A stretch of DNA of 64,000 bases from an endosymbiont of Galathealinum brachiosum (GCA_003349885.1 QFXC01000011.1:517355-581354), one strand, 5' to 3'; shown: positions 2,742 to 62,452, counted from the stretch's first letter. A program made the numbers and translations. Notes: a model not told the origin generated them from the letters alone.

Positions 2742-3779
2742 TTACTGAGTTTTTTCCAGACTTTGTATTTTCAGGCTTACTTTTTTAGCACGATTAATTA
2801 ACTGAATTAGCTCTTTGTTTTCAGGTTCTAGTTGAGCGGCCTGTTGCCATATTTTTAGTGCATCATCTATTTTGTTTTCACTGTAAAGTGTTTTCCCAGA
2901 AGATATTTTATTAGCTACAAGTTTACTAATTTCAGAATTTAGTGTGGACAGCAGTGCTTTTGCTTTTTCATGTGAAGGAGTCACGGTAAGCAAAGCACTA
3001 AGGTGGCTTTGTGCTTTATTGTACTCATGTTTATTATATGTAACTTCATATAAATCCAGCAATTCTTTCTGACGTTTTTTTATAGATTTATCTTTTAACT
3101 GTGCATTTATTTTACTAAGCCATAATTGTTTTTGTTTAGAGGGCGCTAGATTATCTGATAAAGCATAACAGTCTCGAGCTATTTCATATTGCATATTTTT
3201 TCTGGCCTGATCGCCACATCTTTTTAGATGGCTGGCCACATCAGTTCTATCGGCATTGTATCGATCTATATCAAACTGAGCATTATAGTCATAGGGTATA
3301 AGTTTATGAAGTTTGTCATATATTTTTCGATAAGAAATTAAAGAGTGTGCTCGTTTCATGAGCATATCTTTTTTCAGGGCCGTAATTTGTTCATCTCTTT
3401 CGCGAAGCAGGTTAGATCTTTCATGGGTTAATCTGGGCTCGTCCTGAATTTTTTCCAGGGCATCATCATAAACATTAAGAGCTTGTTGCCAATCATTAGA
3501 TGATTTTAATTTTTGCGCGTTAACGGAGGTTTTTTCTATGAATTGATTTTTATTGACGACTATAGTTTCAGTTTTATCCAGAATAGATTTGAATGCTTTA
3601 TCGTTTTTATCAATGTTCTGTAGTGCGTTATCAATTTCATCGTATTCGTTCTGGGTTAACCATTGTTTTAAGTCATGATCTAGTGATTCAGGTGTTTTAT
3701 GCAATAGTGAGCAGGCTGGCATAAGAAAATATGCAAACATGAGAATAATAATCTGACAATTTTTTGTTAAAATATTCAA
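2742..3779 (-). CDS. putative lipoprotein / secreted TPR-like, coiled-coil protein
   Basis: N-terminal signal peptide ending ...FLMPAC (possible lipobox Cys), then a helical repeat-rich sequence. Its start overlaps the stop of the upstream cyclase gene by 4 nt, suggesting an operon. Confidence 0.5.
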   Translation of the reverse strand: MNILTKNCQIIILMFAYFLMPACSLLHKTPESLDHDLKQWLTQNEYDEIDNALQNIDKNDKAFKSILDKTETIVVNKNQFIEKTSVNAQKLKSSNDWQQALNVYDDALEKIQDEPRLTHERSNLLRERDEQITALKKDMLMKRAHSLISYRKIYDKLHKLIPYDYNAQFDIDRYNADRTDVASHLKRCGDQARKNMQYEIARDCYALSDNLAPSKQKQLWLSKINAQLKDKSIKKRQKELLDLYEVTYNKHEYNKAQSHLSALLTVTPSHEKAKALLSTLNSEISKLVANKISSGKTLYSENKIDDALKIWQQAAQLEPENKELIQLINRAKKVSLKIQSLEKTQ

Positions 3780-5266
3780 CTATCAGTCTCATCAGAAATA
3801 TTTAAGATATTATCTAGTTGTTTTTGCATGATTTTTTCCTGTTCAGGAACCATATTATTAACAAGCCAGGTTGATACAGGCAGTTCTTTACCGCGCACAC
3901 GAATTATTTTATGTTTGTTAGCCAGTATCTGTGTCGATATATTATTCTGTTGGTATAACTCTTCAAGAATGAGGATCTGATCACTTTCAGCGATGCCTGC
4001 GAGTCGTGAAGCAATATTAACCGGGTCTCCTATTACAGTGTATTCCATTCTATCGCTTGATCCAAGATTGCCAGCTATCATGAGTCCGCTATTAACACCA
4101 ATTCTAAAATGAATAGGAATTTTATTCTGTTTCTGGCGTATTTTATTAAGCCGGTAAACGGTTTCTCGAATCATAATGGCGCAGTTTATAGCGTTGAGGC
4201 TATGATTATCCGAAGAGTCGGGTACGCCAAAGACAACCATCGCACAGTCCCCCATAAATTTGTCTATGTGGCCATTGTATAACTGGGCAATACTTGATAT
4301 ATGTGAAAAATATTCATTGAGTAAATTGGCGATTTCTTCTGGTGGAAGCTTTTCAGATATACTGGTAAAGCCAACAATATCAGCAAATAAAACGGATGCA
4401 TCAACGTGTTTTCCACCCAGTTCTACATCATTTAGATTTTGCAAAACTTTTTCTGCAACATTGCTGGAAACGTAACGTGAAAATACATCTTCAACCTGTG
4501 TCTTTTGTAATAGTCCATGAGCCATCTGGTTAAAAGCACAGGCAAGCTCACCGATTTCATCATTACGCCGTTCATTTAAACGGTATTCAAAATCACCAGA
4601 GCCAATTGCTTTACTTGCATCGACCAGGTTATGTATAGGCTTGGATAAGTGCCGACTCATAACAAAGGCAAGTAAAATGGCAATCAGGCTCATCAATAGT
4701 GTTGCAAAAATAATTACGAAACGAGAGTTTTTTAAAGAATGAACCATTTGCTGTTTGCTGAAAGTGATAATGACATGTCCAGCGACAAGCTGCTTGAACT
4801 TGATAGGACTATCAAAGCATATCAGTTTGTCTTGAGCGTTTTTAACAGCGGCCCACTCAAAAATATGTGCTGTATTTTTATTGCCTAATTGATGCTGAAT
4901 ATAACTAATAGAGGGTGTTAAGCCATTATTGGCCAGAATTTTTTTCTGATCAGATATAATCACAGCGCCTTTTATCTGGTTATTGTCTACAAGATTGTTT
5001 ACCAGTGTTTGTAAGCCAAGATTGTCATCTGATAAAACCATTTCTGCAGCGCTAATTGAAACCTGTCTTGAAAGTGCAGAACCTATATTATTAATTTGCT
5101 GGCTCAAAACCATTTTCTGGTTTTCTAGTATGATAAATCCGAGCGTTGACATGCCGCTTACAATTAATATTGTAATGGCAATGGCGAGCTTTATGGCAAT
5201 CGGGACTCTTATTTTAAAGCGCTTGTCATCGTTTTTTTCAGGTGTCTGTTTTATGTTCTGATCCAA
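3776..5266 (-). CDS. membrane class III adenylate/guanylate cyclase with HAMP domain
   Basis: Two TM segments, a HAMP-like segment (DASKAIGSGDFEYRLNERRNDEIGELACAFNQMAHGL) and cyclase motifs (VLFADIVGFT..., KFMGDCAMVVFG, GDPVNIASRL). Confidence 0.75.
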   Translation of the reverse strand: MDQNIKQTPEKNDDKRFKIRVPIAIKLAIAITILIVSGMSTLGFIILENQKMVLSQQINNIGSALSRQVSISAAEMVLSDDNLGLQTLVNNLVDNNQIKGAVIISDQKKILANNGLTPSISYIQHQLGNKNTAHIFEWAAVKNAQDKLICFDSPIKFKQLVAGHVIITFSKQQMVHSLKNSRFVIIFATLLMSLIAILLAFVMSRHLSKPIHNLVDASKAIGSGDFEYRLNERRNDEIGELACAFNQMAHGLLQKTQVEDVFSRYVSSNVAEKVLQNLNDVELGGKHVDASVLFADIVGFTSISEKLPPEEIANLLNEYFSHISSIAQLYNGHIDKFMGDCAMVVFGVPDSSDNHSLNAINCAIMIRETVYRLNKIRQKQNKIPIHFRIGVNSGLMIAGNLGSSDRMEYTVIGDPVNIASRLAGIAESDQILILEELYQQNNISTQILANKHKIIRVRGKELPVSTWLVNNMVPEQEKIMQKQLDNILNISDETDS

Positions 5267-11319: not shown

Positions 11320-11697
11320 ATGACAATGAAATATATGGCCGAGGTGGAAGAATTTCGTGACAAACTAAAGTCAGGTGGCAAGCCATTTTTATTAAGAAAT
11401 AGACTGCCAGCCGTAAAAGTAGAGCTAGAGTTTGAAGGGCTACTTAATGGTATGCCTGTGGTATGGCACGCCTGCATTAGAACGGTGGAAGATTGTTCGT
11501 TGAATAATCAGGTTTCTGATGATCCAAAGCAATTTATAAAAATTGAAATTATTGACGGTAGACATGAACTTGAAGTTGCTTTAAATCTTAATGTCATTGA
11601 TATGGCTACGCTAGAGCGTACTATAATTATGATTAGAAAATATAAGCGATTACAGCCCGGATGCCATGAATATGGTGCGCGAAGTAAGACAGAATAG
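11320..11697 (+). CDS. hypothetical protein (125 aa)
   Basis: ORF only. Immediately upstream of, and on the same strand as, the ParA-like gene. Confidence 0.3.
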   Translation: MTMKYMAEVEEFRDKLKSGGKPFLLRNRLPAVKVELEFEGLLNGMPVVWHACIRTVEDCSLNNQVSDDPKQFIKIEIIDGRHELEVALNLNVIDMATLERTIIMIRKYKRLQPGCHEYGARSKTE

Positions 11698-11746
11698 ATT
11701 TTAAAATTTATGGCTTAGGTTAACTGGTTAAGGATAGATATCAGCA

Positions 11747-12409
11747 ATGAAGCGTATAGTTGTAATTAATACTAAAGGTGGGTGTGGTAAGACGACAGTC
11801 TCCACCAATCTGGCGAGCTATTATGCATCTAAAGGATTTAATACCGCATTATTTGATTATGATCCTCAGGGTTCAAGTATGCGCTGGTTGAAGCTTCGGG
11901 AAGGTGATATGTCGGATATATATGGTGTGGTTGCGCATAAAAATTCAGCCAAAGCAGTTACCATGAGCTGGCAATTGCGATTACCGGCAGAAACAGAACG
12001 GGTTATTATAGATACGCCACCGGGATTAAAAGGCCCGGAGCTCAAGGAGCAATTAAAAGGCGCAGATAAAATTCTAATACCTGTTCTACCTTCCCCTCTG
12101 GATATTTTTGCTACAGCTGATTTTATTCGTGATTTGCTGCTTGATGTTAAGGTTCGATTAAATCAGACCAGTATCGGCATTGTGGCAAATCGGGTTAGAA
12201 AAAATACGGTTGCTTTTCAATCTTTAGAGCGTTTTTTAAGTTCATTAAATATACCAGTAGTTGCTAGATTAAGGGATACGCAGAATTATTTACGTGCGAC
12301 TGAAGAGGGTATGGGGATACATGAATTAAAGGGTAAAAATGTGTATCTGGATAGAACGCACTGGAAAGGTATAGTTGAGTGGCTGGACAGGAATGATCAG
12401 AATTTATAA
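11747..12409 (+). CDS. ParA/MinD-family P-loop ATPase (orphan, no parB)
   Basis: Deviant Walker A NTKGGCGKTT at the N-terminus. 220 aa. No ParB-like partner nearby. Confidence 0.75.
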   Translation: MKRIVVINTKGGCGKTTVSTNLASYYASKGFNTALFDYDPQGSSMRWLKLREGDMSDIYGVVAHKNSAKAVTMSWQLRLPAETERVIIDTPPGLKGPELKEQLKGADKILIPVLPSPLDIFATADFIRDLLLDVKVRLNQTSIGIVANRVRKNTVAFQSLERFLSSLNIPVVARLRDTQNYLRATEEGMGIHELKGKNVYLDRTHWKGIVEWLDRNDQNL

Positions 12410-12450: not shown

Positions 12451-13212
12451 TTATTTCTTTTTTCTTCTGCTTATGAGGCCTAGTCCAGTGATTCCAGACA
12501 GGAGCAGTAAGAAGGCGGGTGGTAATGGAACAGGCGTAACGGGTGGAGATATACTTGTTATAGAAGAATTCAAAGCAGCTGTTAATGATAATGCCATTGG
12601 GCTAGTTGAGTTTGCCTGCAAATCAATAAACAAAGACTCGTTTAGCGTTTCCCCCAGTGAAATATCAAAATCAGATAAATCTATTGAAGCGGCCATTAAC
12701 CGAACATTTGAATAAGTTGAGCCATCCCAGTCAACGCGATTAGCAACCTGTTCTGTGCCTGACGTGCTGAAAACATTGGAGACAGTTAATGCCTGGCTTA
12801 CACCATTTATAGAAACGGTTGCATCATTTTGTGTCTGGTCCCAGATAAAAAAGAAGGCAAGATCATCGCCATTACCATTCAGGGCGAAAGTTTGGCTAAA
12901 GTCTAATTCCAGAGACAGGCTGCCGGCACCTTGCATTGCTGCTAAAGACGTGGACAGGTCAGAATCTGTAGTATCGTTAGGTGTATTGGTGTTAGCCCAG
13001 GCCTGACCAGTGTATGTTAGCCATGAGTTACTATCTCTGTTTCCTGCGTACCAGGATGTGCCGTTGTATGCTGTGCCCTGACCTGAAATGAGTTGATCGG
13101 CAACAGCATTATCTTCAAATGCATATGAGCCAATACTTGCAGCATTAACCTGTGAGCCTGCAGCAAGTGCTGCAAATAACAAAACGGGTTTTAAAATAAC
13201 GTTAATGTTCAT
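12451..13212 (-). CDS. secreted protein with C-terminal PEP-CTERM-type (VPLPA-like) sorting signal
   Basis: N-terminal signal peptide (LLFAALAAGSQVNA), then a ~200-aa Ser/Thr/Asn/Asp-rich domain. The C-terminus TPVPLPPAFLLLLSGITGLGLISRRKKK has the motif - TM helix - basic tail layout of PEP-CTERM sorting domains. Confidence 0.65.
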   Translation of the reverse strand: MNINVILKPVLLFAALAAGSQVNAASIGSYAFEDNAVADQLISGQGTAYNGTSWYAGNRDSNSWLTYTGQAWANTNTPNDTTDSDLSTSLAAMQGAGSLSLELDFSQTFALNGNGDDLAFFFIWDQTQNDATVSINGVSQALTVSNVFSTSGTEQVANRVDWDGSTYSNVRLMAASIDLSDFDISLGETLNESLFIDLQANSTSPMALSLTAALNSSITSISPPVTPVPLPPAFLLLLSGITGLGLISRRKKK

Positions 13213-13261
13213 TTTCTTTACTCTTAATTTTTTTATAATTTAAATTTTCAGTATTGAGGTT

Positions 13262-13585
13262 CTACTGAAAAGGCGCCGGTGGCGGCGGCGGTAGTGTTAC
13301 AGGAGTTGGTGGGGCAGAGATAACGGGCGTAGATGCATCTATATTGCTGAACCCGGCAATAGTGTTAGGTGTCAGTATTGCTTCACGCAGAAATGCCGAA
13401 TTCTCATTTGGGCGGAAGTTAACGTTAGGTGTTTTAGCTGGTGGAGGCGTTACTCTGGCAACAGGGCCAGCAGCAGGTTTAAGTCCCTCAGACCATTTCC
13501 CCCATGTGTATACAGAGTCCTGCTCTATTGCTGATGCATGCATGGGTACAAGTAATGCGATTGCTAATAAATATATTCTTTTCAT
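13262..13585 (-). CDS. secreted proline-rich protein (107 aa from ATG at 13583-13585)
   Basis: Signal peptide MKRIYLLAIALLVPMHASA. The C-terminus is Pro-rich (APPTPVTLPPPPPAPFQ). Contains a PAAG tetrapeptide. Confidence 0.45.
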   Translation of the reverse strand: MKRIYLLAIALLVPMHASAIEQDSVYTWGKWSEGLKPAAGPVARVTPPPAKTPNVNFRPNENSAFLREAILTPNTIAGFSNIDASTPVISAPPTPVTLPPPPPAPFQ

Positions 13586-13947
13586 ATTCTTAAACCTTAT
13601 TGATATAGAAAGAATTAAAAGCAAATACGATGCCGATAAATATAAAACCTAACGTAAACAGTCACTTGTGTTCAATAGAATTGAAATGCATTTAATCCGT
13701 TATTTCTGTGGGCTTCTATCCCAGATTTGGAAGATTATAGTTATCGTAAAATGCCTGTCCATACCCCATTCGAGGGGGCGCTGAGGGATATTTATGTAAC
13801 TAATTGATAATAAAGCGAATGTTTAAGCGTGAAGTTTGTTTTTTTAGATGAGCTGTTAAATTCAAAATGATTTGTACTTGCCTGTATTGTAAATACTACC
13901 GACAATGACTTGATTATAGTGTCGGTAATATTTACAGGGCATGTATA

Positions 13948-15210
13948 TTAGAAGAAATAGCGGCGCATATTTAGCGCATAGGTATCTCTGTCATATTCGG
14001 TTTCTGCTATATTTGAATCATTATTAGTAAATGTATATTGAGCATTTAGTGTCCATGATCTCAATAAGCCTGTGCGGAAATCATGACTCACCCCTAATAC
14101 AACAAGTAATTCTGTTTCATCACGTATTTCAGTAAAGCTATTGGCTGTATCTATGGCTTTATATTTGTAGTCTCGGCTACTGGCAGTTAAATAAGCCAGC
14201 GCATCATCCCAGGCGGGCATCTGTCCACCGAGATAATATTCGGCACCTGTGTAGTGAAGTGTGCCATCAACTGCACCATTATCGTGATACCTGATGCCCC
14301 CCTGAATCCCTATTGACTGGCGTTCAAAGAATTTTGCAAGGTCAATATTCCATGTTGTCATGGTGCCCCTGAGTCCCTGATCTTCCGGCTGATCATATTC
14401 CCGAATTGATGTTTTGTTTTCGAAAGTGATTTCAAGGTCTTTTGTGATGCTGTAGGTCGCTAAAGGATTAATGCCTATATATTGGGCATAGTCTTCCTTG
14501 CCAAATATGAGCTTGTCAATTTTAAAATTCAAAGCAGCACGCCATTTTTCTTCAGCTATTAGTGCAGGACCGGTGTTTAAGGTTAATACAGATAAATTGA
14601 AGTCAGTATCATCTGAGCCATAAACTCTGCTGAAAGCCGTTGCCTGAGTATGCCATTCAAAATCAACTATGGAGCCGCCCATGTGTAAGGCCTGACTCGC
14701 TCTTGAGCGGTGTGAATAAGTGAACATGAACTGGCCACCACTACCACTTTGCTCGAGTGTTTCTGGTGTGACGCCGGTTATATCTTTGCCAGGGCCCAGA
14801 TTGATATTTGAATCAGTAAACATACCAGCAGAAATATACATGGAAGAGGTAGATCGTTGAGCAGCTGTTTTTATATCACCTGATAATTGAGCTAAATAAG
14901 CGGTTATAGATAATTTAACTTCATCAGGTGTTTCCGGGTCATTTAAAACAGTGGTTAATTCATCTTTTGCATCTTGATAACGACGTGTCAGGTGATAAGA
15001 GATGGCGAGTTCCAGACGCGCACGATTAAGGCCTGGCTGATTACTTAAAATAGTTTCAAATATTTCAATGGATTTGAATAACTCACCATCCTGACGATAA
15101 CGCATCGCTTCGTTAAATAAAGTCTCCGGATCTACGGCTTCTTCAGCGTAGACAGGTGGTGCGAGAAGCGCTGTAGATAAACAGGCTGATACCAGAATTC
15201 TCCTGATCAT
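13948..15210 (-). CDS. outer-membrane protein: N-terminal TPR-like domain + C-terminal beta-barrel (Slam/DUF560-like architecture)
   Basis: Signal peptide (LLAPPVYAEE). The helical TPR-like N-terminal ~110 aa is followed by alternating amphipathic beta-strand sequence ending in ...RRYFF (C-terminal Phe OMP signature). Confidence 0.5.
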   Translation of the reverse strand: MIRRILVSACLSTALLAPPVYAEEAVDPETLFNEAMRYRQDGELFKSIEIFETILSNQPGLNRARLELAISYHLTRRYQDAKDELTTVLNDPETPDEVKLSITAYLAQLSGDIKTAAQRSTSSMYISAGMFTDSNINLGPGKDITGVTPETLEQSGSGGQFMFTYSHRSRASQALHMGGSIVDFEWHTQATAFSRVYGSDDTDFNLSVLTLNTGPALIAEEKWRAALNFKIDKLIFGKEDYAQYIGINPLATYSITKDLEITFENKTSIREYDQPEDQGLRGTMTTWNIDLAKFFERQSIGIQGGIRYHDNGAVDGTLHYTGAEYYLGGQMPAWDDALAYLTASSRDYKYKAIDTANSFTEIRDETELLVVLGVSHDFRTGLLRSWTLNAQYTFTNNDSNIAETEYDRDTYALNMRRYFF

Positions 15211-15478
15211 TTAAATATCCTCAATACAATAAGTAATTTTTCGTGATATTGACGTTTTTTAGGTGTTTTTACAAGGAAAACCGTGATTCTTATCCCATAT
15301 GGGGGGGTGTACTAATTAAGTGTGGGCAGATGAATCAGGTGGTATATACATGAAAAATTGATATTAAAGCCCGTCGCTAGCTATAAGCTATTTTTAAAAG
15401 CGTCCTTAGGCTATTATATTTAACGGTAATTAGCTTAAGCAGGTATGAGTTGTTGATCTACGTAAAGAAGGCGCAAGT

Positions 15479-16114
15479 TTGAGGCAAAAAAGTAAATATT
15501 TACTACATTTTTTGAGTTTGTTGTTTGTTGTGATTCCAGATATTGCTTTGGCAGGGCTTTTTGGATATCAGGAAAATGAACGTGAAAATTTAAAGATGTT
15601 TCCTCAATGGTTATCTGTCTTAGAACGAAATATCAAAGAAAGTGCGCCAGAGGGTAATTGTGAAAGTAGTCGGCTGGATAGTTGTCATGTGAAAAACTGG
15701 TTAAGTTTTCTGAAAAGCATTCGGCATCTTTCAAAAATGCAGCAGATAAATAAGGTTAATCTTTATGCCAATGAGCATGACTATATTTTAGATATAGAAA
15801 ATTACGGTGTTAAAGATTACTGGGCGACTCCCAGAGAGTTTTTATACAATAATGGTGACTGTGAAGATTATGCAATAACTAAAATGCTCTCATTAAAAAT
15901 GTTAGGTTTTAATATGAAGGGTATTAGGTTGGTAGTATTGCAGGATACAAACTTGAGAACACCTCATGCTGTTTTAGCATTGCACACTAAAAATGATATT
16001 TTGATAATGGATAATCAGGTGGATGAGGTTGTGTCACATAAACATATTGTACATTATGTGCCGGTTTATGCAGTGAATGAAAATAAGTGGTGGATGTTTT
16101 TGCCGCAACAATAA
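15479..16114 (+). CDS. periplasmic transglutaminase-like cysteine proteinase (BTLCP / Peptidase C93, LapG-like)
   Basis: TTG start with a GAAGG RBS. Signal peptide, then a candidate C-H-D triad in the conserved context (NNGDCEDYAITK ... TPHAVLALH ... IMDNQ). Confidence 0.65.
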   Translation: MRQKSKYLLHFLSLLFVVIPDIALAGLFGYQENERENLKMFPQWLSVLERNIKESAPEGNCESSRLDSCHVKNWLSFLKSIRHLSKMQQINKVNLYANEHDYILDIENYGVKDYWATPREFLYNNGDCEDYAITKMLSLKMLGFNMKGIRLVVLQDTNLRTPHAVLALHTKNDILIMDNQVDEVVSHKHIVHYVPVYAVNENKWWMFLPQQ

Positions 16115-16165
16115 TGCGAAATTAATCTGTTGTTTAGCTTGCTAAAGTATTTATAAGATAAATGT

Positions 16166-18187
16166 ATGAAAGATAAAAGAACTTCAAAAAAAACAAATTC
16201 CCCTCCCTTGCTGGCAAGTATTTTTCTGGTGTTTTTTGTCGCGATAAGTTTGTGGTTGATTTTTGAGTATGCAGAAAAAGAGAGAAGTCGTGATTTAATA
16301 AACTGGAAAACCCGATTAGCTTTACTGGCTGAGATACGCGCGGCGGCTGTTGAAGACTGGATTGGATTGAGGAAAATCCAGTTGAATAAACTGGCGGAAA
16401 ATGCCAGTTTAAGATTATATCTTTCGGCATATAATAATCGTGATGAAGTTGATAAAAATGTATTGGGCGCTGAGCAGGGGCACGTAAGAAACTTATTACG
16501 AGCAAGCGCGGATCGTTTTGGCTTTGCAGAAAATATAAGCGCGATAAATAAAAATAATTCAAGTGATTATGGACTAGCGATTTTAGATGCAAATCGCCAG
16601 CTTGTTATGTCTACAAAAGGTTTTCCAGATAATGTTGATATACATAGCGGTGTTATAGATAAAGTATATTCGACAGCAAAGTCGCTGATAATAGATTTAT
16701 ATGCGGGGGAAAATAAACAACCGGTTTATGGTTACATAATACCTGTATTTCAGATTCAGGATCTTGAAGCAGTGAATCCTGTTGGCGCAGTTATGCTGTT
16801 GCTGGATCCACAAAAGAATCTATTTTCTATATTAAAAAACAAACAAAGTGTAACGATTTCTGATGAAACATTGCTTGTTAAAAGAGATGGACCAAGCCTT
16901 GTTTTCTTAAGTCCGGTGAAAGGCGAGTTTAAACTGTTTTATCGTCTTCCTGATAATAACAATCAGTTAGCCGCATCTTATGCGTATCATAACCCGGGTG
17001 GTTTTAAAGAAATCAAGGATTATAGAGGAAATGACGTACTGGTGACGGGTCGTAAAATCAAGAATAGCCCCTGGGGGTTAGTGCAGAAAATTTCTTCTTC
17101 TGAAGCGTTAGCTGAATCGAACAAACATCAGGAGTTTTTAATAACAACATTTATATTGTTTGTGATTGGAGTCGCAGCCGCGTTTGTTGCAATCTGGCGT
17201 CACAGTACCAGTTTGCGTTTACAGTCTTTGAGTGATGAGCTTGAAGTTAGAACAGTTTTGCTAGATGCTGTTACGGATAATATAAAAGATAATATTCTTT
17301 TACTGGATCATGATTCAAAAATTATTTTTATAAATATTGCATTTGCAAAAGCCTTGTCGCTGGATGTTGATGAAATAAGATCAAAGCACATAACCAGTGT
17401 GCTTGGAAAGGAAACGGCAGAATCATTAGTTAATAGTTCATGTGAAGATAGTAAAGCATGTGTTATGGCGTTACAGATAGAGGCCAGTGAGCGTGTATAC
17501 CATGTGTCATCTACTCGGCTGGAGTCGGGTGCGCATCAAAGTGCAACTTTATATGTATTGCACGATATAAGCGAGTTAAAGCAGGAGCAGGAAAAACGTG
17601 AACAACTGGGGCAAGGGATTATTCAAACTTTAGTTAAAGCGGTAGATTTGCATGATCCGTTTTGTATCAATCATTCTGAGCGTACGCGTGATGTTGCAGT
17701 AGAAATAGCTAAAGAAATGGATTTAACTAATATTCAGTTAGAGTCTCTTGAAATGGCGTCTTTACTTGCCAATATAGGTAAGTTATTCGTGCCGAAGGAG
17801 ATCCTGATTAAAATGGAAGCATTGTCAGATGATGAGTCTAAACAATTGAAAAAGCATATTGAGTATGCTGTTGATATATTGTCAGGGCTTTCGTTTAATG
17901 GACCTGTTGTTGATATAATTTCACAGAAAAATGAACGACTTGATGGCAGTGGGTATCCTAAAGGTATAACAGGTAATGATATTATGCTTGAATCACGAAT
18001 CCTGGCTGTAGCAAATGCATTCGTCGCAATGGCTAGTTCGCGAGCGTATCGAGAAGGCCGTGATGTAAAAGAAGTAATGAATATCCTTCTAGAACAGTCT
18101 GAATCATTATATGACCGTCATGTTGTTGCTGCTTTATTTCATATATCAGAGAATAAAGCAGACTGGAAAACGTGGCAGAGTATATAA
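16166..18187 (+). CDS. membrane sensor: periplasmic Cache-like domain - TM - PAS - HD-GYP c-di-GMP phosphodiesterase
   Basis: TM helices at ~residues 15-37 and ~321-343, bracketing a ~285-aa Cache-like periplasmic domain. A PAS-like region follows, then HD-GYP motifs (DLHDPFCINHSERTRD ...NIGKLFVP... ERLDGSGYPKGI). Confidence 0.7.
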   Translation: MKDKRTSKKTNSPPLLASIFLVFFVAISLWLIFEYAEKERSRDLINWKTRLALLAEIRAAAVEDWIGLRKIQLNKLAENASLRLYLSAYNNRDEVDKNVLGAEQGHVRNLLRASADRFGFAENISAINKNNSSDYGLAILDANRQLVMSTKGFPDNVDIHSGVIDKVYSTAKSLIIDLYAGENKQPVYGYIIPVFQIQDLEAVNPVGAVMLLLDPQKNLFSILKNKQSVTISDETLLVKRDGPSLVFLSPVKGEFKLFYRLPDNNNQLAASYAYHNPGGFKEIKDYRGNDVLVTGRKIKNSPWGLVQKISSSEALAESNKHQEFLITTFILFVIGVAAAFVAIWRHSTSLRLQSLSDELEVRTVLLDAVTDNIKDNILLLDHDSKIIFINIAFAKALSLDVDEIRSKHITSVLGKETAESLVNSSCEDSKACVMALQIEASERVYHVSSTRLESGAHQSATLYVLHDISELKQEQEKREQLGQGIIQTLVKAVDLHDPFCINHSERTRDVAVEIAKEMDLTNIQLESLEMASLLANIGKLFVPKEILIKMEALSDDESKQLKKHIEYAVDILSGLSFNGPVVDIISQKNERLDGSGYPKGITGNDIMLESRILAVANAFVAMASSRAYREGRDVKEVMNILLEQSESLYDRHVVAALFHISENKADWKTWQSI

Positions 18188-18308
18188 TATTTTCTAATTA
18201 AAATAAGTATATTAGCATTAACTGTTTGTCTTTTAAGTCAATGACAGACATTATTGATCTGTTAATAGAAATAAACGAAAGAATACAAGTCGGGAGCTTG
18301 TCACCACC

Positions 18309-20513
18309 ATGTATGAATCTTTTTATGGGCTTACGGAAAAGCCATTTACATTATTACCTGATCCGGACTATTTATATCTGAGTCCTAAACATCAACGGGC
18401 GTTGACGCTTCTTGAATATGGCATGATGAATCAGGCTGGCTTTAGCGTAATCTGTGGTGATACAGGGGCTGGTAAAACAACCCTGATTCGACGTCTCTTG
18501 ACTGAATTGGGTGATGACACCAAAGTCGGTCTTATAAATAATACCCATCACTCATTTGGTGAATTGCTTAACTGGGTTTTGATGGCATTTGGCATTGATG
18601 GTGACGGCAAGAGCAAAGCCCAGATGCACCAGATGTTCATCGACTTTCTGATTGAACAGTATGCTCAGAATAAACACACAGTTTTGATAGTTGATGAAGC
18701 GCAGAACATGAAGGCCGATACATTAGAAGAACTGCGCATGTTGTCGAATATTAATTCAGATAAAGATCAGGTGTTACAGGTTATTCTGGCGGGGCAACCT
18801 GCACTGCGTGAAACTTTACGCCAGCCTGAGTTAATGCAGTTTGCGCAGCGTATAGCCGTAGATTATTACCTTGAATCACTGAGTGTTGAGGAAACAAATG
18901 CTTATATTCATCACCGACTAAAGGTTGCGGGCACTGAAAATACGATTTTCACGGATGCCGCCTGTGAAGCAATATTTAAATACAGTGGTGGGACACCGCG
19001 ACTAATTAACCTTCTTTGTGATACAGCACTTGTATATGGTTTTGCTGAGCAAAGCGAAGAAATAAGCGAACAATTAGTACATGACGTAGTGCGCGAGCAA
19101 CATAGCAATAGCATTATACCTACGTTTAACACGGATCATTCTGGTTCGGTTTCCAATCCAGCTAAGAATAGCCCGGATCCTGCCCCATTAGTTGATGTGC
19201 CGATTACACAAAGTGATCAGAAAATAAGTGAGCAGAGTGCTGCTTATGAAAAAACAGAAAAAAAGGTCGTAGTTGCTGAGCCACCAGTTAACGAAGAAGA
19301 TAGAGCAGAGAAATCAGCTGAATTACTTCAGCAAGCCAGTCAACAGACAGCCAGTGTGGTCGGTAGTGCTGAGTCGACAGCTCCAGTTTCTCATACAGAG
19401 TCTTTGTCTGGTATAGAAAAGGCACAGATTAGAAATACGGCTAATGACACTTCAAAAGATGAATCTAATGTAACACCGATAAAGGCTGTGCTGTCTGAAG
19501 CGGAAGAAGTAATTGAAGAGTTAGATGCGGCTGAATTAGAGGATGATACAGATCAGCAAGTTGCGTCTGACGTTAAAGAGCCTGAGCAGGCGAGATCAGA
19601 TGAGACGTTTAAAGAGCCAGTTGATCAGGATCAGGAAAGCGGGTCTGGTGAAAGCTCACCAGAAGATATCCTTAGCCATAATGCCCCTGAAATGGGAAGG
19701 CGAAAAGAGGATGTTGAAGAAATAGCACCATATATGTCACGTAGAAAGCGTGATAACGAAGATGACGATGTTTATCCGATTGTGCATATAGAAGAGAATC
19801 CGAATAAGGGATTCAATATGGTAGTGATTGGCGTTGTTGGGGGAATGTTTGTTGCTTCCATTATAATGATGATAGCTGCCTGGACGATGTTTGGATCAAA
19901 AGATAATATTGATCAACAGGCTGTACAGAAAAACTTAAATCAGCAATTACAGTTAGAGGATGAAAGTCGTGAGCTTAAAGCATTGCAAAAAGAGCGTGAT
20001 GCAGCTTTAGCCGTAACACGCGCGCTTGAAAGAGAGCGTGATGCAGCGATAACTGCAGCAAAAGCACAGGAAGAAATTCGTGCAGCCGAGTTACGTGCAG
20101 CCGAGATATTAGCTGAGCAGCAACGTAGAGCGGATAAGAAATTACAGCAGGCTAGAGCCCGAATAAGAGAGGCTGAACTAGCTGAGTCTAAGGCACTGGC
20201 ACGAGAACATGAAATGCAGCTAGCAGCTGAAAGAAAAGAGTCTGAGTTAGAAAATGAGCGTCTTAGGCTGCTTCGTAAAGAACGGATAAGATTAGAAGCT
20301 CTTGCAGTTGATGAAGAAATGGCCGCAATACGTTTGAAAGAAAAACAAAGCCTTATAGAAGAGTCAGAAGTAGTTGATGAAGTAGTTGATGAAGTAGCGG
20401 ATGAAGTAGCGGATGAAGATAAAGTCCAGACAAAACCCGAAGAAGCTAAGAGTTTTTCATCAAATCCATGTAATAGTCCTTCAGCAAAATTTTTGTCTAC
20501 CTGTAAAAAGTAA
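18309..20513 (+). CDS. ExeA/GspA-family AAA ATPase fused to acidic linker, TM helix and TolA-like periplasmic coiled coil
   Basis: N-terminal FYGLTEKPFTLLPDPDYLYLSPKHQRALTLLEYGMMNQAGFSVICGDTGAGKTTLIRRLL (ExeA/MshM-type Walker A) with Walker B LIVDEAQN. A long acidic low-complexity region is followed by a TM helix (VVIGVVGGMFVASIIMMIAAW), an Ala/Glu/Arg-rich coiled coil and a VDEV tandem repeat. Confidence 0.65.
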   Translation: MYESFYGLTEKPFTLLPDPDYLYLSPKHQRALTLLEYGMMNQAGFSVICGDTGAGKTTLIRRLLTELGDDTKVGLINNTHHSFGELLNWVLMAFGIDGDGKSKAQMHQMFIDFLIEQYAQNKHTVLIVDEAQNMKADTLEELRMLSNINSDKDQVLQVILAGQPALRETLRQPELMQFAQRIAVDYYLESLSVEETNAYIHHRLKVAGTENTIFTDAACEAIFKYSGGTPRLINLLCDTALVYGFAEQSEEISEQLVHDVVREQHSNSIIPTFNTDHSGSVSNPAKNSPDPAPLVDVPITQSDQKISEQSAAYEKTEKKVVVAEPPVNEEDRAEKSAELLQQASQQTASVVGSAESTAPVSHTESLSGIEKAQIRNTANDTSKDESNVTPIKAVLSEAEEVIEELDAAELEDDTDQQVASDVKEPEQARSDETFKEPVDQDQESGSGESSPEDILSHNAPEMGRRKEDVEEIAPYMSRRKRDNEDDDVYPIVHIEENPNKGFNMVVIGVVGGMFVASIIMMIAAWTMFGSKDNIDQQAVQKNLNQQLQLEDESRELKALQKERDAALAVTRALERERDAAITAAKAQEEIRAAELRAAEILAEQQRRADKKLQQARARIREAELAESKALAREHEMQLAAERKESELENERLRLLRKERIRLEALAVDEEMAAIRLKEKQSLIEESEVVDEVVDEVADEVADEDKVQTKPEEAKSFSSNPCNSPSAKFLSTCKK
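20372..20419 (+). repeat. 4 x 12-bp tandem repeat (gtagttgatgaa / gtagcggatgaa) inside the ExeA-like CDS
   Basis: Direct tandem copies encoding (V[VA]DE)x4. A slippage-prone in-frame repeat. Confidence 0.7.
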
Positions 20514-59932: not shown

Positions 59933-61657
59933 TTATATTTTTGAGCTGGACAGCTGAAAGCAGACATTAGACGGTTCATTATGAATCAGTTGTAATTGAT
60001 ACCCATTTCTTTCAGCTAGTTGTGCAGACTGATATAGACCAATTCCATATCCATCTTTAGATGGCAATATTTGTTTAAATAATACGTTTGTTTTTGAGAC
60101 GGGGACAGGGTCACCATCATCATAGACCGTTATAACTGGTTGGCCTTTTTCAAGTTTGATGGTGGTAGTAATTTCAGTTTCTGGTCTTGTGCGGCGTTTG
60201 TTTCTGGCGTTTTCAAGCAGATTTTCAAGAACAGTATCAAAGACATCAGTATCGATAGAGGTATTTTGATCTGTTTCTCCAACAAACTGAATATCACGTC
60301 CATGATATCGGCTTTGAAGTTCTGTCCACCAGACATCCATTTGTTTGAAGCTTTTACCAGTGTCAGTTTTAGTCTGTAATTTATCAAGTGTGTTTTGTAA
60401 ACGTTGAGATAATATAGGTAGTTGTTTGCTAATAAGTTGATGGCTTTCAGCCGGATCATCTGCGGCATGCACAACACCAGTTAATGCCTGTAGAGACTGT
60501 AAAATGTTTTTAATATCGTGTGTTAGTTTTGATCCGGTTTCATAAACCGCTTTTAAATGTGTCTGGTTTTTAAGCGTTATTTCACGTAATTTTGAATTAT
60601 AAAAATAACTCATTAAATGCATAAGTAATTGCGCATGAATTTTTAAAGCTGAGCCCATAGGAATATGGCTATATAGAATCATCCTGATTCCATTATCTTC
60701 AAATAATGTTTGTTGTGCACTTACCTCACCGTAAAGGTTCTCGCTTTTATTGTCTGACCATTTAACGCCGCTTACCCAGGAGAGAGTTAATAATTGTTTA
60801 ATGCTATTTTCGAGATATAAATCAGGTGTTATTTTTTTATTCTGCCCCAGCAATGATGTATGTTTAACCCAGTTTTCAAATGGATTGCCGATATTTAAAA
60901 TGTGTTGTTCCCATATTTGTCCTATGCCGGCAAGACCATGTCTGGGTAACCATATAAGACTCAGAATAATAAAGAAAACACCAATGGATAATGCCGTAAT
61001 TAGTAATGACTGGAGATAGTGAATGTTTGAAGTAAAGCTAATTAATATGCTGGTGACATAAAAGCTAAATAACCCAAAACTGATTAAAATACTGTGTAGG
61101 TAATCAATTTTGACAGAACGAACTTTTTTACAAGGCCATAAAATAAGTAAAGCACAGGCAAACAATAAAACATAAAAAATAATTTGTTCGAGTTCATGAT
61201 CAAGTACATTTAAATGAAATAAGCGAGGTGTCAGTATAAGGCTAAGTTGTAGAAATAAAATTACAGCTGAAAGCGCATATAGGGTTCGTTGAAAGCCATT
61301 AACAAGAGCGCTTCCGCTAGTTAAGCCAATTAATAAAATGATCCATAGCGCGATAAACCAGTCACCGAGAAGCAAATACAGCGCTATGTTTAGGAGTAAA
61401 ACAGGTATTAATGTCTTTAGGTGTATTTCTTCAGTCGCATTTAAGGCGGGTTGCCAGAGTAGAAAAAAACCAATGTGTGCGAGTAGAAGTGCTGAAACAA
61501 GAGGGCTGTTTTCCGTTGGTTGGTGTAATGCCAGGTGTAGCAATAACAGCATTAACCCAAGGTTAATAAACTCAAACCGGGTGCTGGTGGTGACTCTGTA
61601 AATATTAGGTTTATTAAACATATATTGTTGAAACATTGTCATTTGTTGATATTTCAA
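59933..61657 (-). CDS. multi-TM sensor histidine kinase (PilS-like architecture)
   Basis: ~7-8 N-terminal TM helices, a cytoplasmic linker, H-box THDIKNILQSLQALTG and HATPase_c (DDGDPVP...DGYGIGLYQSAQLAERNGYQL). No cognate response regulator is adjacent other than glnG. Confidence 0.65.
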   Translation of the reverse strand: MKYQQMTMFQQYMFNKPNIYRVTTSTRFEFINLGLMLLLLHLALHQPTENSPLVSALLLAHIGFFLLWQPALNATEEIHLKTLIPVLLLNIALYLLLGDWFIALWIILLIGLTSGSALVNGFQRTLYALSAVILFLQLSLILTPRLFHLNVLDHELEQIIFYVLLFACALLILWPCKKVRSVKIDYLHSILISFGLFSFYVTSILISFTSNIHYLQSLLITALSIGVFFIILSLIWLPRHGLAGIGQIWEQHILNIGNPFENWVKHTSLLGQNKKITPDLYLENSIKQLLTLSWVSGVKWSDNKSENLYGEVSAQQTLFEDNGIRMILYSHIPMGSALKIHAQLLMHLMSYFYNSKLREITLKNQTHLKAVYETGSKLTHDIKNILQSLQALTGVVHAADDPAESHQLISKQLPILSQRLQNTLDKLQTKTDTGKSFKQMDVWWTELQSRYHGRDIQFVGETDQNTSIDTDVFDTVLENLLENARNKRRTRPETEITTTIKLEKGQPVITVYDDGDPVPVSKTNVLFKQILPSKDGYGIGLYQSAQLAERNGYQLQLIHNEPSNVCFQLSSSKI

Positions 61658-61754
61658 CAGAAGCTATCTTTAAATTGTCGAAATATCAACATAAATTAAT
61701 GCAAAAAATCACCTTTATTAGCTAAGTTATTGAAATATATGTGCTATATATTTA

Positions 61755-61771
61755 TGGCATGGGCTGTGCAA
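61755..61771 (+). promoter_or_regulatory. sigma-54 (-24/-12) promoter upstream of the pilin gene
   Basis: TGGCATgggctGTGCA: GG-N10-GC spacing is exact. 54 bp upstream of the ATG at 61824, and a GGAGAAAG RBS follows. Confidence 0.6.
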
Positions 61772-61823
61772 TATATCCATCAAAGCATTATTTTAATTAT
61801 AAAATCTTTCTGGAGAAAGAATC

Positions 61824-62375
61824 ATGAAAAGACAATCAGGTTTCACATTAATCGAAATAGCCATTGTACTTGTTATTATCGGTTTGTTATTGGGTGGGGT
61901 ATTAAAAGGTCAGGAAATGATGACCAATGCTAAGATCAAGCGTATTTCTAATGACTATAACGGTATTTCAGCAGCAACATTTTCATATCTTGATCGTTAT
62001 TCTTCATTCCCGGGCGATGATCCAAATGCAGCAGCGCGTTGGGGTGGTGCAGTTGTAAGTGGTGACGGCGATGGCCTTATTGATGCCGGAGAGCAACCTG
62101 ACGTTTGGGAGCACTTAAGAGCATCTGGTCTGGTTTCAGGCACGGGTACTACTAATCCCACTCATGCATTTGGTGGTATTATTCGAGTTCAGCAAAATGG
62201 TGCAGGTTTAACGGGCACAGTAATCTGCATGTTAAATATGCCAGGTAAAACAGCTGAAATTATAGACAGACAGGTTGATGACGGTAATGGTAATACCGGT
62301 GAGTTTAGACAAACTGTTAACTCTGTTACTTATGATCAGAATGTTACCAATCTGGAAGTTTGTAAAAAGCTTTAA
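61824..62375 (+). CDS. type IV pilin-like protein (prepilin-type N-terminal methylation domain)
   Basis: MKRQSGFTLIEIAIVLVIIGLLLGG matches the class III signal (G-1/F+1/E+5). 183 aa. Two C-terminal Cys residues (VICM...EVCKKL) are consistent with a D-region disulfide. Confidence 0.75.
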   Translation: MKRQSGFTLIEIAIVLVIIGLLLGGVLKGQEMMTNAKIKRISNDYNGISAATFSYLDRYSSFPGDDPNAAARWGGAVVSGDGDGLIDAGEQPDVWEHLRASGLVSGTGTTNPTHAFGGIIRVQQNGAGLTGTVICMLNMPGKTAEIIDRQVDDGNGNTGEFRQTVNSVTYDQNVTNLEVCKKL

Positions 62376-62395
62376 GCGCACACTGTAAATTAGCA

Positions 62396-62424
62396 CTTAA
62401 AAGGCCTGCATTAGCAGGCCTTTT
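62396..62424. terminator. bidirectional rho-independent terminator between the pilin gene and glnG
   Basis: aaaaggcctgcattagcaggcctttttt. Confidence 0.85.
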
Positions 62425-62452
62425 TTGTTTGATGTTTATAATATAAAAAACT

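Follow-up and report, generated by a model that had tools for sequence, protein, structure and literature searches.

Do the divergently arranged genes at 12451-20513, which set a LapG-like protease and an HD-GYP protein beside an outer-membrane protein (OMP), a small secreted protein and a PEP-CTERM protein, form a functional unit, and if so, what could this unit do? An earlier sequence-only reading had proposed a LapG-like module for the retention and release of surface proteins, wired to c-di-GMP turnover. We followed up this proposal in the window (the whole 64-kb stretch of DNA analysed) and in related loci. Retention and release of a surface protein under c-di-GMP control is still the best reading, but the degenerate HD-GYP domain indicates sensing of c-di-GMP instead of its turnover.

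Layout and conservation of the locus

An ORF check of the window recovered all six genes at the coordinates and on the strands given earlier, with the two arms separated by a gap of 268 bp (15211-15478). The domain architecture proposed for the six proteins largely held in profile searches, in which several scores of the window proteins were sub-threshold. The proline-rich ORF was present, with its start most likely at ATG 13585 rather than at TTG 13624 as first assumed; the 107-aa product from ATG 13585 is identical to the NCBI-annotated protein P0121.

The same genes were found together elsewhere. Nine gammaproteobacterial MAG loci had a gene order identical to that of the window, and the order was likewise kept in 80 metagenome loci and in three distant loci (L011, L020 and L021), from which the ATPase gene is missing. 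Counted over loci anchored on the small secreted protein, with denominators that differ per gene, the OMP gene was present in 48/48, the BTLCP protease gene in 42/43, the HD-GYP gene in 35/35 and the gene of the CTERM protein in 50/53. OMP and BTLCP genes were adjacent in 42 of 43 testable loci, across Beta- and Gammaproteobacteria and down to an OMP identity of ~35%. We concluded that the gene module is kept across marine sulfur bacteria and that its genes are co-localised far beyond chance. The ATPase, earlier counted among the members of the module, was found in all 23 near-clade loci and in only one of five far-clade loci. The locus is best read as a five-gene core module with a clade-specific ATPase.

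Protease and predicted c-di-GMP receptor

The first gene of the rightward arm (15479-16114, plus strand) encodes a periplasmic LapG/DvhG-like cysteine protease of 211 aa, which matched Peptidase_C93 (PF06035) with 69 bits (GA 27) and LapG 4U65_E with an E value of 2.7e-17. The Ca-site and catalytic residues are D127-C128-E129, H163 and D178, and GDCEDYA, the His and the Asp are conserved in the alignment to LapG 4U65_E and 4FGO. A simple hydropathy scan gave the export signal, a hydrophobic stretch at aa 11-29 followed by ALA/G. Judged from these matches, the protease keeps an intact Cys-His-Asp triad, the Ca site and a signal peptide. It is not a LapG proper, since it scored 78 bits against the LapG equivalog NF045674 (cutoff 320) and its partner is a PAS-HD-GYP protein rather than a GGDEF-EAL LapD. 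No record identical to the BTLCP or the OMP of the window was found by exact-sequence look-up.

The partner gene (16166-18187, plus strand) encodes a DvhD-like inner-membrane receptor of 673 aa with a TM segment (15-33), a periplasmic dCache domain (34-324), a second TM segment (325-343), a PAS domain (~366-478) and an HD-GYP domain (488-653), which is the topology of DvhD. HD_5 and PAS_9 matched with 149 and 27.1 bits; dCache_1 reached 30.5 bits, under its GA of 45, and orthologs matched it at E ≤ 1e-5. The closest protein in the PDB was DvhD (9RC0), with E values of 1.8e-38 for the single sequence and 9.4e-71 for the profile, while similarity to the periplasmic domain of DvhD (9RC2) was not detectable by sequence. 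In Desulfovibrio, DvhD acts as a c-di-GMP receptor without catalytic activity (PMC13090378; PMC10990149).

The HD-GYP domain had been described as enzymatically intact-looking, which the alignment contradicts. The HD dyad is replaced by A535-N536 (LANIGK, nt 17765-17782) and the HH pair by K588-N589 (within nt 17924-17959), at the positions where DvhD has S559-Q560 and M612-N613. Among 20 orthologs the HD dyad was degenerate wherever it was detected (15/20) and the HH pair was degenerate in 11. Of the eight c-di-GMP contacts compared with DvhD, five are identical (L553, Y597, M622, R626, Y628) and F499 and Q644 are conservative; the bridging-site Pro is kept, and the phosphate contact K582 of DvhD is a Ser in the window receptor. 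As the metal ligands are degenerate and the closest solved relative is non-catalytic, the receptor is predicted to sense c-di-GMP and not to turn it over.

The pairing of these two proteins, earlier taken as undescribed, is already known from 2024 and 2026 as DvhG/DvhD (BfsG/BfsD) of Desulfovibrio vulgaris Hildenborough, a BTLCP with a dCache-PAS-HD-GYP receptor (PMC10990149; PMC13090378; PDB 9RBZ, 9RC0, 9RC2). As there, the protease gene adjoins that of the receptor, the replacements of the HD and HH ligands fall at identical positions, most contact residues are retained, and a neighbouring gene carries the protease motif [T/A/P]AAG. Unlike in the Desulfovibrio locus, T1SS and a giant RTX adhesin are lacking; in their place stand a putative conduit, the Slam-like TPR/14-stranded barrel, and a candidate substrate of 107 aa, which is secreted. 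The locus further includes a PEP-CTERM protein of hypervariable sequence and, in the clade of the window, a GspA-like ATPase, and its hosts are Gamma- and Betaproteobacteria. With LapG/LapD/LapA/LapEBC of Pseudomonas fluorescens the locus shares a periplasmic Ca-dependent BTLCP with the D-C-E motif and Cys-His-Asp triad and, as far as sequence indicates, the inside-out c-di-GMP control logic and a di-alanine substrate site. It differs in its receptor, which is not a HAMP-GGDEF-EAL LapD, and in having neither a retention-module adhesin nor a TolC-like LapE. What is new is the partner arm, which consists of the Slam-like OMP, the small protein with its PAAG motif and the CTERM protein. The sequence-only reading had missed both the PAAG motif, which marks the likely substrate, and the resemblance of the OMP to Slam/T11SS proteins.

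Outer-membrane protein, candidate substrate and accessory proteins

The OMP gene (13948-15210, minus strand) encodes 420 aa with a signal peptide, a periplasmic TPR domain (aa 28-117) and a predicted 14-stranded β-barrel (aa 120-419). An AF2 model, built with an alignment of database homologs, placed helices at aa 28-117. The window protein itself scored below threshold for TPR_Slam (PF24575; 29.3 bits, GA 35.2) and for SlipAM (16.1 bits, GA 22). All 10 OMP orthologs gave a PF24575 match (best E 5e-9), and precomputed annotations assign the family to nearly all of 120 OMP homologs; a sequence profile searched against the PDB returned only generic TPR proteins. By its sequence the OMP is predicted to be a TPR protein with a 14-stranded Slam/T11SS-like barrel. 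It resembles the Slam/T11SS proteins (Neisseria Slam1/2, Xenorhabdus NilB/HrpB; PMC8406197, PMC12282271) in its predicted N-terminal periplasmic TPR domain and 14-stranded barrel and in the directly adjoining candidate cargo gene, and a TbpB-like β-barrel is present in the adjacent and homologous protein of Sulfuricella and in P0382, where the match was weak. It departs from them in that DUF560/SlipAM is sub-threshold and the adjoining proteins have no C-terminal 8-stranded barrel; domain searches found no such TbpB-like barrel in the small or the CTERM protein of the window.

The small secreted protein (13262-13585, minus strand) consists of a signal peptide, a conserved module, DSVYxWGxWxxG[IL]xPAAG…VNFRPNENSAF, and a variable Pro-rich tail. 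Within the module, P37-A38-A39-G40 (nt 13466-13477, minus strand) matches the experimentally defined cleavage consensus of LapG and DvhG, [T/A/P]AAG, which is cut between the alanines (PMC13090378), and is therefore a candidate BTLCP cleavage site. In 65 homologs the P and both alanines were invariant and the G nearly so. [PTA]AAG was retained in 79/88 distant family members, and a minority of family members carried PASG, PSAG or PGAG instead. Each locus has a single copy of the motif, and this copy invariably lies in the gene that follows the OMP gene. Two further proteins, P0315 and P0397, were rejected as family members because their matches were spurious repeat-protein profile matches. In Sulfuricella the WGxW…PAAG module heads a TbpB_B_D-containing, T11SS-cargo-like protein (33.3 bits, GA 26), whose gene adjoins the OMP gene and two BTLCP/HD-GYP pairs. 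Other members have lipoprotein or coiled-coil N-terminal extensions ahead of the motif, which fits a layout of anchor followed by cleavage site. Predicted cleavage of the window protein would free an N-terminal piece of only ~18 aa, too small for a LapA-style folded plug. Taken together, the small protein is a likely substrate of the BTLCP.

Downstream, a gene of 253 codons (12451-13212, minus strand) encodes a secreted variable protein with an N-terminal signal peptide, a C-terminal TM segment and a VPLPA/PEP-CTERM sorting signal at aa 228-253 (VPLPPAFLLLLSGITGLGLISRRKKK; nt 12454-12531, minus strand). The window protein reached 22.7 bits for TIGR03370 (VPLPA-CTERM; cutoff 25.35), and orthologs exceeded this cutoff with 26.5 and 34.1 bits; two orthologs scored 17.3 and 16.8 bits for TIGR02595 (cutoff 16). 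The sorting layout of motif, TM helix and basic cluster is present, and the motif is kept in 50/53 loci. The mature part is hypervariable (22-33% identity when classes are compared), and single-sequence AF2 gave no reliable fold (pLDDT 41). Between near-identical strains the variable tail of the small protein and the adjoining CTERM protein were exchanged together as a cassette. Physical linkage alone could produce such co-variation. A di-alanine near the anchor (TAAL) was considered as a BTLCP target and rejected, as it was not conserved among orthologs.

The clade-specific accessory protein (18309-20513, plus strand) is a bitopic ATPase of 734 aa. Its cytoplasmic AAA_22/TIGR03015-like domain (aa 1-265; Walker A 50-57, DEAQ 129-132) is followed by an acidic linker, a TM segment (504-522), a periplasmic coiled coil and the invariant C-terminal NPCNSPSAKFLSTCKK. 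It matched AAA_22 with 95.8 bits and TIGR03015, the XrtA/PEP-CTERM system-associated ATPase, with 302.9 bits (cutoff 324.5); no PDB relative was found by sequence. It is bitopic and N-in like ExeA, but no PG_binding domain was detected and the C-terminus is a coiled coil with a Cys-loop tail instead of a peptidoglycan-binding domain, so that we do not class it as GspA/ExeA. The tripartite C-terminal sorting signal, the AAA_22 ATPase near the TIGR03015 threshold and a σ54-type promoter recall PEP-CTERM/XrtA systems, from which the locus differs in having no exosortase or EPS genes in its neighbourhood. Unlike PEP-CTERM/XrtA and GspA/ExeA systems, distant versions of the module do without the ATPase. 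Its probable role is that of a lineage-specific helper in assembling the envelope or in handling the PEP-CTERM protein.

A σ54-type -24/-12 element, CGGCAT-N5-TTGC (13620-13635, minus strand), lies 50 nt upstream of the ATG of the small gene. TGGCAC-N5-TTGC was found at a fixed distance of 48-51 nt in 8/9 gamma loci, a σ54-type match lies likewise upstream in L020 and L021, and strict matches in the 64-kb window number only two when both strands are counted. The small-protein/CTERM operon appears to be transcribed in a σ54-dependent manner. A σ54 regulator and a histidine kinase of the window (59933-63853) were considered as PrsR/PrsK and rejected; the regulator is NtrC (735 bits) and the kinase scored only 45 bits against PrsK. 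Directly 3' of the OMP stop codon lies a conserved hairpin with a 17-bp stem (13888-13936, minus strand; alignment A3) and a predicted folding energy of -21.5 kcal/mol, for which terminator, stabiliser and operator are candidate roles. An Rfam search of the long stretch that separates the OMP gene from the small gene gave no relevant riboswitch, for c-di-GMP or otherwise.

A proposed release switch and its alternatives

We propose, with a probability of about 0.5, that the locus encodes a Lap-like retention/release switch that acts on a T11SS-like conduit, in place of the T1SS used by Lap and Dvh. In this model the Slam-like outer-membrane conduit would be coupled to an inside-out c-di-GMP switch of the DvhD/DvhG type. 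At high c-di-GMP the receptor would keep the protease inactive; when c-di-GMP drops, the protease would cleave the small protein at A38/A39 and part its N-terminal WGxW segment, a periplasmic hold-fast, from the NFRPNENSAF/Pro-rich tail. The freed tail may then be exported or displayed via the barrel together with the cognate VPLPA-CTERM protein, and a variable surface structure would be released or remodelled. The role of the PEP-CTERM anchor, or of any exosortase, is not accounted for by the switch.

A rather unlikely alternative is that BTLCP and HD-GYP protein form a DvhDG/Lap-type regulator of the ordinary kind, which controls a giant T1SS adhesin whose gene lies at another site of the genome, with the OMP/small/CTERM arm as a conserved or divergent-promoter co-regulated neighbour. 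Every BTLCP substrate characterised so far is an RTX-type adhesin (PMC13090378), and Alphaproteobacteria have BTLCP/HD-GYP pairs without the OMP arm, so that the pair can serve other substrates. Against this stand the adjacency of OMP and BTLCP genes across two classes and the invariant consensus motif in the adjoining gene; moreover, neither T1SS or RTX genes nor a giant adhesin with an N-terminal retention module was found among the window ORFs or, in gene tables, within ±10 kb of related loci. Somewhat less probable still is a system of the PEP-CTERM/exosortase type for surface sorting or floc formation, with an XrtA-associated ATPase, the OMP as a PrsT- or PgaA-like TPR/barrel exporter and the CTERM protein as sorted cargo; the BTLCP would be a regulator or, replacing the exosortase, would process the VPLPA-CTERM anchor. 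No exosortase was found in the 64-kb window or the neighbour tables of related loci, nor glycosyltransferase or Wza/Wzc genes in the window or related flanks. The nearby σ54 regulator is NtrC and not PrsR, distant loci keep the CTERM protein without the ATPase, no di-alanine is conserved in the sorting motif, and the TPR domain of the OMP matches a Slam-specific family, below threshold in the window protein. Chance juxtaposition of the six genes, for which nothing but their heterogeneous functions speaks, has a negligible probability and is already refuted by the same order in dozens of loci from differing samples and lineages.

In the searchable literature we found no report of a c-di-GMP-controlled protease in partnership with a Slam-like barrel, a small protein and a CTERM protein, and no paper linking Slam/T11SS (DUF560) to a LapG-type or transglutaminase-like protease or to c-di-GMP; a T11SS co-occurrence paper of 2025 does not mention BTLCP, HD-GYP, PEP-CTERM or c-di-GMP under the terms looked for. 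More tentatively, at clearly less than even odds, the locus may encode a type XI (Slam-like) system for secretion or display, the first such system to be regulated, in which a LapG-family protease, gated by the degenerate HD-GYP receptor, cuts a small, dedicated 'tether' at PAAG and releases or remodels a strain-variable surface structure of two parts, the tether tail and its cognate PEP-CTERM protein. If this were true, BTLCP substrates would extend past T1SS adhesins, and a single machine would join c-di-GMP, T11SS and PEP-CTERM sorting; at its most extreme, this reading has the BTLCP or the OMP route standing in for an exosortase.

If the release switch proposed here is correct, the inside-out c-di-GMP logic of Lap and Dvh would be a portable control unit that has been combined with no fewer than two unrelated kinds of outer-membrane conduit, the TolC-like channels of T1SS and Slam-like barrels. 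T11SS-like proteins of marine bacteria that are not host-associated, for which few cargo proteins are known, would gain a candidate cargo and a regulator, and a short, testable cleavage substrate would be at hand. The exchange of cassettes among strains that are nearly identical points to a surface structure under diversifying selection in sulfur-oxidising, symbiont-related Gammaproteobacteria, which would be relevant to host or surface attachment.

Gene order and conservation of the locus

The six open reading frames of the locus were found exactly where the sequence-only reading had placed them. The leftward arm comprised the genes of the outer-membrane protein (OMP; 13948-15210, 420 aa), the small protein (13262-13624, 120 aa if read from a TTG start) and the CTERM protein (12451-13212, 253 aa). 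The rightward arm comprised those of the BTLCP protease (15479-16114, 211 aa), the HD-GYP receptor (16166-18187, 673 aa) and the ATPase (18309-20513, 734 aa), and a divergent gap of 268 bp separated both arms. Profile searches assigned the domains proposed for the rightward arm, namely BTLCP (Peptidase_C93, 69 bits; gathering threshold, GA, 27), HD-GYP (HD_5, 149 bits) and ExeA-type ATPase (AAA_22, 95.8 bits).

The co-localisation of the six genes was also confirmed by comparison with related loci. All six were present in unchanged order and orientation in nine gammaproteobacterial MAG loci (within L001-L010), including L004, in which RHS genes replace the left flank. In Sulfuricella sp. T08 (L011; NZ_DF967525.1, 229-12651) the genes of a Slam-like OMP and of a 422-aa TbpB_B_D-containing protein lie between two BTLCP/HD-GYP pairs with degenerate HD-GYPs, and a PAS-GGDEF-EAL gene is found at one end. 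The OMPs of two further loci, L020 and L021, were about 36% identical to that of the window. Each is divergent from a BTLCP/dCache-HD-GYP pair, and after it come, in order, a small Pro-rich protein and one of 230-250 aa with the ending AVPLPLPALLFLSGL…RRR; the ATPase was not found in either locus. The alphaproteobacterial loci L012-L019 contained the BTLCP/HD-GYP pair only.

Scanning metagenomes with the small protein as anchor gave 80 loci, and each gene was counted only in those loci whose flanks were long enough to test for it. In these loci, which are not phylogenetically independent (small-protein identity spans about 32-100%), the OMP was present in 48/48, the BTLCP in 42/43, the HD-GYP receptor in 35/35 and the CTERM protein in 50/53. 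The ATPase was present in 23/23 testable loci of the window's clade and in one of five of the distant clade. We concluded from these counts that the core consists of five genes and that the ATPase is a clade-specific accessory, dispensable to the core since distant versions of the module do not carry it. In one locus, L096 (821-2632), the OMP, the small protein and the CTERM protein were present, the BTLCP was not detected and the HD-GYP gene gave a fragment match only; this locus may represent a decayed switch.

A DvhD-like receptor paired with a BTLCP protease

The BTLCP carries an N-terminal signal peptide and is 99% identical to P0002, a database protein from the same MAG. It aligned with the LapG structures 4U65_E and 4FGO, and GDCEDYA (D127-C128-E129), H163 and D178 are kept. 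Against the LapG equivalog model it scored only 78 bits (cutoff 320).

In the receptor, PAS_9 (27.1 bits) and a sub-threshold dCache_1 match (30.5 bits) were detected besides HD_5, and a hydropathy scan gave a TM segment at 15-33, a periplasmic region at 34-324 and a second TM segment at 325-343. The best PDB match was DvhD, the c-di-GMP receptor of Desulfovibrio vulgaris (9RC0, PAS/HD-GYP), with an E-value of 1.8e-38 for the single sequence and 9.4e-71 with a nine-member profile, for which V-cGAP3 was the runner-up at 1e-36. The HD-GYP domain had been taken to be enzymatically intact-looking, and this did not hold. By alignment with DvhD the HD motif is replaced by A535-N536 and the HH motif by K588-N589. 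Of the eight canonical c-di-GMP contacts of DvhD five are identical in the receptor, two are conservative and one, K582, is replaced by Ser; the proline of the bridging site is retained. Twenty orthologous receptors from Gamma-, Beta- and Alphaproteobacteria were compared; the HD motif was detected in 15 and was degenerate (AN, MN or LN) in each of them, as was the HH motif in the 11 Gamma- and Betaproteobacterial receptors where it was detected. With both motifs degenerate and DvhD as the best PDB match, we interpret the protein as a putative c-di-GMP receptor and not as a phosphodiesterase.

The DvhDG papers describe DvhD as a dCache-PAS-HD-GYP protein with SQ as its HD motif and MN as its HH motif, which binds c-di-GMP with high affinity and does not hydrolyse it; DvhD controls the protease DvhG, whose cut in adhesins falls between the alanines of [T/A/P]AAG (PMC13090378; PMC10990149). 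As in the window, DvhG/DvhD pairs a BTLCP with a membrane protein made up of a periplasmic domain, PAS and HD-GYP.

The Slam-like OMP, the small PAAG protein and the CTERM cassette

For the window OMP, TPR_Slam (29.3 bits, GA 35.2) and SlipAM/DUF560 (16.1 bits, GA 22) were both below GA. Ten tested orthologs all matched TPR_Slam and six matched SlipAM; among 120 database homologs PF24575 was found on nearly all and PF04575 on several. A confident AF2 model built with 45 homologs (pLDDT 87.2) has helices at 28-117 and, after them, 14 β-strands, an architecture equal to that described for OMPs of the Slam/type XI secretion system (T11SS) family. Since the Pfam scores of the window protein itself are sub-threshold, we refer to the OMP as Slam-like and not as a proven Slam member.

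The gap between the OMP gene and the small gene is conserved, spans 360 bp and contains three elements. Just after the OMP stop lies a hairpin with a perfect 17-bp stem (13888-13936, minus strand; -21.5 kcal/mol) without a T-tract, whose position is kept in nine loci; its sequence changes appear compensatory, as in L010. It is accompanied by a σ70-like element (13734-13761) and by a σ54-type -24/-12 element, TGGCAC-N5-TTGC (13620-13635, minus strand), at a fixed 48-51 nt before the ATG of the small gene. No riboswitch was detected in this gap. The fixed-distance σ54-type element was found in 8/9 gammaproteobacterial loci (L001, L003 and L006-L010 among them), L020 and L021 likewise have an upstream match, and the whole window holds only two strict matches. 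This conservation implies that the putative promoter of the small gene would depend on some enhancer-binding protein; the sole σ54 activator within the window is NtrC (62453-63853). Between NtrC and a multi-TM histidine kinase we also observed a weakly GspH-like protein with a prepilin-type N-terminal methylation domain (61824-62375, plus strand).

For the small ORF, the ATG at 13585 is a more plausible start than the TTG. The resulting 107-aa product is identical to P0121, annotated by NCBI as a hypothetical protein of the same endosymbiont, and had no family match in domain searches. After the signal peptide its orthologs share D-S-V-Y-x-W-G-x-W-x-x-G-[IL]-x-P-A-A-G … V-N-F-R-P-N-E-N-S-A-F and end in a variable Pro-rich tail; in 65 sequences P37, A38 and A39 were invariant and G40 nearly so. 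Searching 1.84 billion representatives with a profile recovered 88 genuine family members; in 79 of them the WGxW segment is followed by [PTA]AAG. In the other members PASG, PSAG, PTSG, PGAG, PAAA or PLPG stands in its place, apart from one fragment outside the 79 (P0330) that is truncated at the N-terminus and still has PAAG.

PAAG fits the experimentally defined LapG/DvhG cleavage consensus. In all 14 retrieved BTLCP loci with an OMP it occurred exactly once, each time in the gene that lies downstream of the OMP, and it was found in none of the eight without an OMP. In Sulfuricella the PAAG module (GEWGPWSEFIQPAAGP) forms the N-terminus of the TbpB_B_D protein adjoining the OMP, and P0382 shows the same layout (TbpB_B_D, 23.9 bits); T11SS cargo is characterised by a TbpB-like barrel at the C-terminus (PMC8406197). 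Three family members (P0332, P0344, P0348) have a lipobox and a coiled coil of ~140 aa ahead of the motif, an arrangement of predicted anchor, then cleavage site. The case for the small protein as candidate substrate of the BTLCP is thus circumstantial but coherent.

The CTERM protein of the window scored 22.7 bits for VPLPA-CTERM (cutoff 25.35), and its orthologs end in VP[LV]P[AP]A..LFLSGL.GLGL..RRKK. We concluded that the predicted sorting signal is genuine, because orthologs exceed the cutoffs of TIGR03370 (L001, L009) and TIGR02595 (L003, L007). Hypervariability is seen in the mature domains. Across 20 kb the DNA of L001 and L002 is 99.5% identical apart from a completely different cassette of ~800 bp (L001 7039-7855, L002 7052-7855), which spans the CTERM gene together with the small gene's 3' tail; their CTERM proteins are 32% identical in amino acids and their small proteins differ solely in the tail. 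Across 67 loci the CTERM proteins fell into discrete classes, each with its own small-protein tail ending (…LNTGGAL, …VVIAP..TPTTP…, …PPPPP… or …TGPSTGGF), and four different cassettes occur in lineages that share an identical N-terminal motif (e.g. WGAWAQNIQPAAG). The tail and the variable CTERM protein either function together or merely travel together by physical linkage.

Accessory ATPase, neighbouring genes and the proposed switch

The best NCBIfam match of the ATPase was TIGR03015, 'XrtA/PEP-CTERM system-associated ATPase' (302.9 bits, cutoff 324.5). This near-threshold score, together with the PEP-CTERM protein in the locus, suggests that the two are functionally linked. A hydropathy scan gave a single TM segment at 504-522, which places the C-terminal 210 residues in the periplasm. 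Within the clade the N-terminal domain is 88-100% conserved, the acidic linker is variable and the periplasmic coiled coil is conserved. The last 16 residues (aa 719-734, window 20463-20510), NPC[NS]SPS[AS]KFLSTCKK, are essentially invariant in seven aligned orthologs, contain two cysteines, are flanked by variable sequence and may be a docking peptide. Unlike ExeA, the ATPase had no peptidoglycan-binding domain in the domain search. An Ala/Glu/Arg coiled coil resembling its periplasmic coil was seen after the PAAG motif of P0329. No exosortase was found in the neighbour tables of related loci or among the polytopic membrane proteins of the 64-kb window, which are an ABC-2 permease, a 400-aa eight-TM protein read as putative YeeE-like, AmtB and a histidine kinase.

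A ParA-family ATPase (NF041546, 122 bits, below cutoff) and a 125-aa protein without family match are encoded at 11320-12409 on the plus strand. They adjoin the CTERM gene in nine gammaproteobacterial loci and are absent from L004, L011, L020 and L021, and are therefore probably neighbours and not module parts. A HAMP-adenylate/guanylate-cyclase gene followed by that of a TPR protein (2742-5266, minus strand) lies upstream of the module, a pair that is syntenic in several relatives (L001 164-2712; L003 1988-4557). In L001 and L003 a 90-aa PilZ protein is encoded a few kb downstream.

The combination had been proposed to be undescribed. Literature comparison showed that the BTLCP/DvhD-type switch itself is already known; what appears new is that it is coupled to a Slam-like OMP, a small PAAG protein and a PEP-CTERM cassette. 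Our searches retrieved no paper pairing DUF560 with 'transglutaminase-like', 'type XI secretion' with LapG, 'surface lipoprotein assembly modulator' with c-di-GMP, or 'transglutaminase-like cysteine' with PEP-CTERM. The accessible portion of a 2025 T11SS co-occurrence study has no mention of BTLCP/Peptidase_C93/PF06035, HD-GYP/HD_5/PF13487, transglutaminase, c-di-GMP, PEP-CTERM or exosortase. In the available text of the DvhDG papers, T1SS adhesins are the only substrates described and Desulfovibrionales are named; the accessible part of their supplements does not mention Gammaproteobacteria or any of the other taxa looked for (PMC13090378; PMC10990149).

The locus observation of the sequence-only reading was thus confirmed and its interpretation supported in part. 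The likeliest mechanism (confidence about 0.5) would be a retention/release switch of the Lap type, acting on a tether associated with a T11SS-like conduit. The c-di-GMP receptor would gate the switch and the BTLCP would carry out the release, its target being the small tether protein, associated with the conduit and with a variable PEP-CTERM surface protein. The predictions of this mechanism are sharp enough for direct testing.
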